A DNA stretch of 64,000 nt from Minisyncoccota bacterium (lineage in GTDB: Bacteria; Patescibacteriota; Minisyncoccia; Phycocordibacterales; JABAAK01): contig OZ241963.1 in assembly GCA_965204115.1 (NCBI GenBank), forward strand, positions 596,622 through 660,621, read 5' to 3'. The first letter of the stretch is position 1, and every line of letters begins with the position of its first letter. Shown here piece after piece: positions 44,547-45,380 of the stretch. A program made the position numbers and the translations under genes. The notes under the pieces are model-generated. The model made no database searches and was not told the origin of the DNA. It saw nothing but the letters and a program-made list of their open reading frames with translations.

Positions 44547-44819
44547 ATGAAAAAGAAAGCACCAATAAAGAAAAAAGCCGCCTCCAAAAGAAAAACCGCT
44601 GCCAAGAGTAGGAGGAAGGTTGCCACCAAAAAAGTGACTAAGCGGACTCCGAGGAAGAGAAGGCGTATGTATACCTATGACACACTTGTGGGTGAGGTGG
44701 AGCAGGATATGGGTATAGAGACAAGTGTGCCGTCTGATATGAAACTTGGGGATTACTTTAAGAAGAAAAAAAGGTACGCTCTTGTGGAGTTGTTGGGTGG
44801 GGGCAGCATGGCAAAGTGA
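44547..44819 (+). CDS. small highly basic Lys/Arg-rich protein (histone-H1-like N-terminus)
   Basis: The product is MKKKAPIKKKAASKRKTAAKSRRKVATKKVTKRTPRKRRR... The extended -10 TGgTAGAAT lies 9 nt upstream of the ATG. Confidence 0.45.
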   Translation: MKKKAPIKKKAASKRKTAAKSRRKVATKKVTKRTPRKRRRMYTYDTLVGEVEQDMGIETSVPSDMKLGDYFKKKKRYALVELLGGGSMAK

Positions 44820-44852
44820 TTTGAACTTCACTTTGTGAGATGCGAATAGCTT

Positions 44853-45380
44853 ATGCAAAATATTGACTTTTCCTTTATCAAAGAATCGGTGTTGCGCAGG
44901 AATGTTGAAAAGATTTCTAGTGATGTTTTAAAACTGGAACTGCTATTAAACGATGCGTCAAAAGAGGTGGTGGACTGTCTTAGAAAAACCGTTGTTATCT
45001 ATACCGCATCAATTATTGAGGCGTTGGTGTTTTGGAAGATTCGGGAGGAAATCACGACTGAGAGAGTAATATTGAAAGATGAGTGGAAGTACAAGGATGT
45101 AAAAGTGCTGTATGCCATTAGTAACGATAGTGAAATAATCGGAGCAGAGCGAAATAGGGAAGAGAGGTCTATAGATAAGCTGGATTTTCATACAATGATA
45201 CGGATAAGCAAGGATAAGCGTATTTTTTCGAATGTGCTATTGAAGGACTTAGACCAGGTGCGGCAATTGCGCAATGAGATTCATATTGATCGGCTGGAGG
45301 ATATCGTGAAAACCTATCCTATGGTGAATGTAGATTTTGTGCAGGAAACATTGGTGAAGACAATACACGCAGTGCGGTAG
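44853..45380 (+). CDS. hypothetical low-GC protein with a C-terminal Rx6H (HEPN-like) motif
   Basis: The coding sequence is AT-rich, in contrast to its surroundings. It contains ...DLDQVRQLRNEIHIDRLED... Confidence 0.4.
   Translation: MQNIDFSFIKESVLRRNVEKISSDVLKLELLLNDASKEVVDCLRKTVVIYTASIIEALVFWKIREEITTERVILKDEWKYKDVKVLYAISNDSEIIGAERNREERSIDKLDFHTMIRISKDKRIFSNVLLKDLDQVRQLRNEIHIDRLEDIVKTYPMVNVDFVQETLVKTIHAVR

Follow-up and report, generated by a model that had tools for sequence, protein, structure and literature searches.

In the 64,000-nucleotide stretch of contig OZ241963.1 from a Minisyncoccota bacterium that was analyzed here (the window), two adjacent open reading frames (ORFs), ORF1 and ORF2, probably constitute a two-gene conflict module of the toxin-antitoxin (TA) or abortive-infection type, in which ORF2 would act as a ribonuclease (RNase) that ORF1 binds and controls. 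The first-pass annotation had described genes for proteins of 90 and 175 residues between ftsI and a giant gene, and the ORF listing bore out both genes, their sizes, and their neighbors. The pair represents a previously undescribed family that was found here almost only in the Candidate Phyla Radiation (CPR; Patescibacteria). The kind of system, in which a HEPN effector and its small partner are linked to restriction-modification (R-M), is well known, but the ORF2 family, the partner domain, and the RNxxH signature were found neither in Pfam (2025 copy), NCBIfam, PADLOC, or PHROGs nor in the literature searched.

The assignment of ORF2 to the HEPN superfamily, proposed earlier from a short motif, is supported by the predicted fold. 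An AlphaFold2 (AF2) model built from the family alignment, with a predicted local distance difference test score (pLDDT) of 93.7 and a predicted template modeling score (pTM) of 0.86, consists of an α-hairpin of helices 12–33 and 37–66, a β-hairpin (residues 71–106), a short helix (112–121), and helices 127–143 and 157–174, which are joined by a loop. A Foldseek search with this model gave AF_0298 (PDB 2hsb) as the top PDB match, with an E-value of 0.033 and a probability of 1.0. HEPN proteins head the list of matches and recur along its whole length. Further ones were the HepT toxins (PDB 7bxo, 5yep, 6m6w, and 7ae8), with target-normalized template modeling scores of 0.57–0.67, and the list also included Csm6 (PDB 5yjc and 6tug), YutE, ST0689, HI0074, and the HEPN domain of sacsin. 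HEPN domains carry an Rx4–6H motif at the end of helix 3 or the start of the following loop, a conserved acidic residue in helix 2, and a variable insert between helices 2 and 3 (Anantharaman et al. 2013, PMC3710099). In the placement of these features, the ORF2 model agrees with this description on all three counts, as residues Arg137–His144 form the last two turns of helix 127–143 and the first loop residue, an acidic residue lies in helix 2, and the β-hairpin is inserted between core helices 2 and 3. At the sequence level, sub-threshold Pfam matches among 131 full-length family members were to DUF4145 (seven members, best E-value 1.3e-4), HEPN (three), HepT-like (one), and RiboL-PSP (one), all far below the Pfam gathering thresholds, and PADLOC gave only stray single matches for these members, CARF_HEPN among them. 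These weak echoes appear to be confined to the HEPN clan. A profile search of the family against PDB sequences found no HEPN chain.

In a collection of 5.8 billion proteins, ORF2 has 10 close homologues. An exhaustive search extended the family to at least 179 cluster representatives (50% identity clusters) at E ≤ 1e-3, 54 of them at E ≤ 1e-10. Residue conservation was counted over the alignment of the 131 full-length members. The sequence RQLRNEIH (residues 137–144), located 31 residues from the C-terminus, had been read as an Rx6H motif. His144 is indeed present in all 131 members, as are Arg140 and Asn141, and Arg137 is an arginine in 120 of them (92%), being replaced by K, M, Q, I, or G in the other 11. 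The spacing is ambiguous: Arg137-x6-His144 falls within Rx4–6H, but the strictly invariant core is Rx3H. The polar residue (N, D, or H) that follows the conserved arginine in HEPN proteins is present as the invariant Asn141 after Arg140; Arg137 is followed by K, E, D, or N. The fourth invariant residue is Glu56 (131/131), which lies inside helix 37–66 in the local sequence E-A-L-V-F-W-K, where the typical Ex3[KR] form is absent.

Some HEPN families are non-catalytic (PMC3710099), and ORF2 might likewise be a binding or regulatory domain, comparable to the substrate-binding HEPN domains of nucleotidyltransferases or to MtlR, that modulates ORF1 as a DNA-binding, nucleoid-associated protein. The atypical Rx3H spacing and the histone-like basic tail of ORF1 would suit such a role, which we nevertheless consider very unlikely. 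HEPN families of this type have lost the R/H motif (PMC3710099), whereas the invariance of E, R, N, and H throughout the ORF2 family argues for catalysis. Furthermore, the basic tail is missing from most of the ORF1 family.

ORF1 consists of two parts with different charges. Residues 1–45 contain 49% K/R (about 45% had been estimated for the N-terminal half) and have a pI of 12, and residues 41–90 are acidic, with a pI of 5.1. The earlier description of ORF1 as histone-H1-like reflects this composition only and was not upheld. Window ORF1 has no match at E ≤ 1, noise aside, in Pfam (HC2 included), NCBIfam, or PADLOC-DB v2, and the sole HC2 match, that of a long-tailed homologue (locus L002, E-value 5.3e-5), is compositional. 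Judged by its sequence, ORF1 is not a histone, and its conserved part is a novel domain of about 45 residues with the family consensus KRFDTKISTIEKxYGVDLGVRGDMKLGNYLKxKGYPSLSKMLK. This domain is strongly conserved across CPR phyla in the alignment, and its AF2 model (pLDDT > 90) contains three short helices (residues 48–55, 67–73, and 77–82). Searches of Pfam, PHROGs, PDB sequences, PDB folds, and BFVD gave no match to it; the best hits, a Tudor domain in the PDB sequence profile search (E-value 0.46) and a Foldseek PDB match (E-value 5.5), are insignificant. A profile search retrieved at least 1440 clusters, all unnamed or annotated as "hypothetical", with the named ones originating from CPR taxa.

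The K/R-rich tail occurs only in the clade of the window, being present in P0012, P0014, P0015, and the homologues of loci L001, L002, and L004. It is longer still in L002 and shorter in L006. The L004 homologue has a complete tail in the correct frame, which the public gene call misses by beginning at an internal Met. The majority form of the ORF1 family lacks the tail and has about 56–64 residues. Several close homologues end exactly in LGG, for which a ubiquitin- or Pup-like nature of ORF1 was considered; it was rejected because distant homologues end in MLKK, MLQDA, and similar sequences and because a β-grasp fold would need a larger domain.

The association of the two genes was examined from both sides. 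On the ORF2 side, seven metagenomic loci (L001–L007) were obtained by exact look-up and twelve GTDB genomes (L008–L019) by a locus search seeded with the alignment of close ORF2 homologues (A1). These twelve genomes are metagenome-assembled genomes of CPR/Patescibacteria, or likely mis-binned ones (Kaiser-, Uhr-, Colwell-, Roizman-, and Taylorbacteria and Peribacteria). A small gene lies directly 5' of the ORF2 homologue in 18 of the 19 loci. Starting from the small domain of ORF1, a scan of metagenomes yielded 32 loci, 27 of which have a HEPN-family ORF 0–55 nt 3' of the domain. In two of these 27, L033 (4144–4664) and L036 (4125–4657), the HEPN ORF is spread over two or three frames and the small-partner gene is intact; the split genes may be pseudogenes or sequencing errors. 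For one GTDB locus labeled "uncultured Gammaproteobacteria" (L013), the pair and its neighbors are nearly those of a Candidatus Uhrbacteria genome (L014), a likeness that suggests a binning or labeling error in the public record. The arrangement characteristic of type II-like TA systems, in which small genes are adjacent, co-directional, tightly spaced, and co-inherited, is therefore present in the relatives as well as in the window, where both genes lie on the same strand with a gap of 33 nt. The idea that the adjacency is coincidental, ORF1 being an independent histone-H1-like nucleoid protein and ORF2 an unrelated orphan, draws only on the K/R composition of ORF1 and the weak HC2 match of its L002 homologue. 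It is effectively refuted by these linkage counts in independent loci, and the tail to which it appeals is neither the conserved part of ORF1 nor, in the window protein, recognized as HC2.

The small domain is also combined with effectors other than HEPN. In L043 (3187–4612), a ThsB-type TIR domain (Pfam E-value 9.2e-19) carries it as an N-terminal fusion, within an island that contains a stand-alone ThsB_TIR and a DUF4231/SLATT membrane protein 5' and Phd-PIN and DEAD helicase genes 3'. The organism of this locus is apparently not a CPR member, going by the look of the sequence. The L045 copy (130–624) is part of an HNH endonuclease fusion with a YopX-family gene 3' of it, a neighbor that suggests phage or prophage surroundings, and the L040 copy lies ahead of a small membrane protein. 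Such pairing of one small domain with different effector domains is characteristic of conflict systems.

The genomic contexts of the relatives point in the same direction as the proposed TA or defense role, the part of the first-pass annotation that concerned a HEPN protein with a small partner. In L016, a type I R-M operon contains the pair between its HsdS and HsdR genes; in L022, L029, and L038, HsdR is the immediate neighbor of the pair. A GmrSD_N-HNH type IV restriction gene lies beside it in L017 and L027, the latter also with an OLD-family nuclease. An MmeI-type enzyme (type IIL restriction) is found near the pair in L015, ParE/Phd in L029, large serine recombinases in L019 and L046, and a C5-methylase fragment, NOV_C, and DUF3800 in L009. 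Restriction, OLD, ParE/Phd, or recombinase neighbors thus occur in at least 10 of 34 loci, a lower bound from unsystematic annotation of the neighbors that has no matched control. Elsewhere the neighbors are housekeeping genes, such as YqeY and HflX in L012–L014 and LepA in L010. Even among related genomes the position varies: the pair is at the same place as in the window in a 90%-identical relative (L004), after ComM in L001 (68% identity), after SMC-like and SET genes and before RRF in L002 (59% identity), and among large surface-protein genes in L003. A single 4.9-kb contig (L006) carries two tandem intact pairs (2261–3028 and 3513–4257) that are divergent, with HEPN proteins 42% and partners 54% identical. 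The pair thus differs in position between genomes and can be duplicated, which is unusual for core genes. A phage origin was considered and rejected, as no relatives of either protein were found in IMG/VR viral contigs and the small domain is unmatched in PHROGs and BFVD.

These observations bear on another explanation, in which the two genes would be a housekeeping RNA-processing pair, ORF2 being a CPR-specific HEPN endoribonuclease for rRNA, tRNA, or mRNA maturation and ORF1 its basic RNA-binding cofactor. In eukaryotes, the HEPN nuclease Las1 processes pre-rRNA. HEPN RNases with housekeeping roles are known (PMC3710099), and the conservation of the small domain across CPR phyla, the normal GC content at third codon positions (GC3), and the many loci, including the window, in which the pair lies among housekeeping genes (FtsI; YqeY and HflX; LepA) are in line with such a function. 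We consider it unlikely, as the position of the pair changes even between close relatives, R-M, defense, or recombinase genes adjoin it in at least 10 of 34 loci, and tandem duplicates have diverged. Frameshifted copies (L033 and L036) and the attachment of the same small domain to TIR and HNH effectors also argue against it, and 179 clusters at 50% identity are sparse for a universal gene.

The conflict-module interpretation suggests the following mechanism. ORF2 would be the effector, a HEPN-fold and probably metal-independent RNase, whose active site would be composed of His144 and Arg140-Asn141 (and/or Arg137) at the end of core helix 3 together with Glu56 on helix 2; by analogy with other HEPN RNases, it is probably dimeric. 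ORF1 would be its dedicated partner, in which the 45-residue domain regulates or directs the effector and the disordered K/R tail of this clade may add non-specific affinity for nucleic acids. Co-translated from a short operon, ORF1 would hold the RNase inactive, and loss, titration, or triggering of the partner, e.g., by phage infection or loss of the locus, would lead to RNA cleavage and growth arrest. The 5' position and tight coupling of ORF1 are compatible with an antitoxin.

Several findings weigh against this interpretation or parts of it. Window ORF2 has no significant match in Pfam, NCBIfam, or PADLOC (none at E ≤ 1, noise aside), and the Foldseek E-values are weak, none being below 1e-3; because no single structural match is strong, the HEPN assignment rests on the consistency of the matches. 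The invariant core R-N-x-x-H is shorter than the canonical Rx4–6H, the Rx6H reading depends on the replaceable Arg137, and a literature search for HEPN together with Rx3H found nothing. IMG/VR viral contigs yielded no copy of either protein. In the window, no defense or mobility gene adjoins the pair, which sits among housekeeping and surface genes with near-normal GC3; the accessory behavior typical of type II-like TA systems is seen in relatives but not in this copy. In L003 (5770–6558), the small gene looks broken, with a stop codon and a frameshift in the A-rich tail region, and the HEPN gene is intact. If this is not a homopolymer error of long reads, the copy is decayed or fused, which would be evidence that the partner is dispensable. 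The C-terminal part of that small gene (…KIGDVFKKRGLHSFAMLLGG) reads in frame into the HEPN ORF. Finally, with a mean column identity of 39% over 121 sequences, the small domain is unusually conserved for an antitoxin, and both this conservation and the TIR and HNH fusions would be easier to explain for a sensor or adaptor than for a classical antitoxin.

A broader proposal, which we advance only tentatively, is that the ORF1 domain is a new CPR-centered regulatory, trigger, or adaptor domain that plugs into HEPN as a neighboring gene and into ThsB-type TIR and HNH as fusions, the HEPN branch having a shortened R-N-x-x-H motif, and that these combinations form a new modular immune family in Patescibacteria. 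Because the partner domain occurs with three effector chemistries (RNase, TIR, and HNH), it is a candidate for a new domain with a regulatory or sensing role, and searches for further systems can usefully start from domains of this kind. The main recognizable defense genes in the window and in the related loci fetched are those of R-M, to which a HEPN module recurring inside R-M operons would add a lineage-specific RNA-targeting layer. If catalysis is confirmed, the invariant E...R-N-x-x-H would widen the accepted definition of the HEPN motif.

The features of the locus and of its surroundings are listed in Table 1. The gene 5' of the pair encodes an FtsI/PBP2-type transpeptidase (Pfam Transpeptidase, E-value 7.8e-61), and on the 3' side a type IV secretion system (T4SS) pilin gene precedes the giant gene. 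The claim that the pair is AT-rich was correct for ORF2 in particular, which at 0.396 has the lowest GC content of the 39 window ORFs (0.512 ± 0.034 in the 37 others, z about −3.4). However, its GC3 of 0.472 departs little from that of the 37 others (0.547 ± 0.052, z about −1.4), and ORF1, with a GC content of 0.458, has a normal GC3 of 0.538. As GC3 is near normal in both genes, the low GC content stems mostly from amino-acid composition (K, E, I, and N) and not from foreign codons. The AT-richness is real, yet it is poor evidence for foreign origin. The suggestion of a recent horizontal acquisition of this copy is accordingly unsupported, given also that no mobility genes adjoin the pair, that no direct or inverted repeats flank it in the window, and that the 90%-identical relative carries it at the same place.

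Regarding transcription, neither a terminator nor a canonical promoter was predicted in the interval from ftsI to ORF1. The sequence TGGTAGAAT could be an extended −10 element, and a similar TGGTAGCAT occurs 5' of the homologue in L004; the consensus promoter scan did not call it and found no −35 match there. Read in this way, TGGTAGAAT suggests that the pair may have its own leaderless or short-leader transcript. A search between 44300 and 46600 for an RNA antitoxin or known non-coding RNA beside the pair gave no Rfam match. Paralogues within the window were also sought; the other two 175-residue ORFs (at 18593 and 58575) are unrelated, and tblastn detected no second copy.

Table 1. Positions in the window of the ORF1–ORF2 locus, its parts, and other features
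Feature	Position	Strand	Basis
Possible extended −10 promoter element TGGTAGAAT	44529..44537	+	Read from sequence; 9 nt before ORF1 ATG
ORF1, small basic partner protein, 90 aa	44547..44819	+	ORF listing; homologues directly 5' of ORF2 homologues
K/R-rich, predicted disordered N-terminal tail of ORF1 (residues 1–40, 55% K/R)	44547..44666	+	Composition; pLDDT 56–73, no secondary structure
Conserved C-terminal domain of ORF1, about 45 residues (41–85)	44667..44801	+	Alignments A4 and A5
ORF2, predicted HEPN-fold RNase, 175 aa	44853..45380	+	AF2 model, Foldseek, family of 179 representatives
Codon of invariant acidic Glu56 of ORF2, helix 2	45018..45020	+	E in 131/131 members
Long β-hairpin insert of ORF2 (residues 71–106), between core helices 2 and 3	45063..45170	+	DSSP of AF2 model
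Predicted active-site motif R137-Q-L-R140-N141-E-I-H144 of ORF2	45261..45284	+	Conservation and AF2 model
FtsI/PBP2-type transpeptidase gene	42673..44448		Pfam
T4SS pilin gene	45436..45849		
Three 55-nt head-to-tail repeats	45859..46024		
Duplicated AT-rich segment, about 166 nt	46065..46328		
Giant gene, 3974 aa	46508..58432		
16S rRNA gene	16733..18194		1372 bits
SocA/Panacea antitoxin-domain protein, 175 aa	18593..19120		Pfam, E-value 8.5e-23
tRNA-Asp	61905..61981		
DUF3800 protein	62015..62653		Pfam, E-value 8.4e-12

Some further observations concern the rest of the window. The 55-nt unit between the T4SS-pilin gene and the giant gene is present in three perfect head-to-tail copies, each with two hairpin-forming segments, AAAGCGAC...GTCGCTTT and GTGCGGCAGCCCTGCCGCA; it occurs nowhere else in the window and has no Rfam match. 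The duplicated AT-rich segment lies 3' of these repeats and before the giant gene, and its copies are 83–90% identical. The bacterial 16S rRNA gene is complete and unlinked, since the window contains neither a 23S nor a 5S gene. About 400 nt 3' of it is the gene of the SocA/Panacea antitoxin-domain protein (GC content 0.424). The DUF3800 gene (GC content 0.408) directly follows tRNA-Asp; DUF3800 was also found near the pair in L009.

Among known systems, the HepT-MntA (HEPN/MNT) systems (PDB 5yep, 7bxo, 6m6w, and 7ae8) come second only to 2hsb as structural matches to the ORF2 model. In common with them, ORF2 is a small stand-alone HEPN protein whose gene shares a two-gene operon with that of a dedicated partner, and its conserved R...H motif lies at the end of helix 3. 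In contrast to HepT-MntA, a type VII TA system, the partner is a novel 45-residue domain with a basic tail rather than a minimal nucleotidyltransferase. As no Pfam nucleotidyltransferase match was found for ORF1 and 18 homologues, neutralization by AMPylation is not expected. ORF2 also differs from HepT in its 36-residue β-hairpin insert and its RxxRNxxH motif, and the two have no significant sequence similarity. A location inside or beside type I R-M or other restriction systems is shared with the DUF4145 (PF13643) and Abi2/AbiD/AbiF HEPN families, and many HEPN families are embedded in R-M operons (PMC3710099 Table 1). DUF4145 is the commonest weak Pfam match in the ORF2 family, though not one obtained for window ORF2 itself. 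However, these families mostly comprise single proteins or fusions, whereas the ORF2 family has an obligatory separate small partner and a different motif spacing.

In RnlA-RnlB and LsoA-LsoB, a HEPN RNase with an anti-phage role is checked by a small dedicated protein. By analogy, the same logic is proposed for ORF1–ORF2 (cf. PMC3710099). RnlA, however, is larger and multi-domain, its gene order and partner fold are unrelated to those of the pair, and homology is judged absent solely from the lack of matches. With respect to its alternative effectors, the ORF1 domain is comparable to the sensor or adaptor domains of CARF-HEPN and AbiJ-NTD-HEPN (cf. the architectures in PMC3710099), although it is new, much smaller, and usually a separate polypeptide. 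The ORF1 tail resembles Hc1/Hc2 (PF07382) in being basic, low-complexity, and rich in K, R, and A. This likeness is compositional only; the conserved domain to which the tail is attached is not a histone domain, and the tail itself was added only in this clade.

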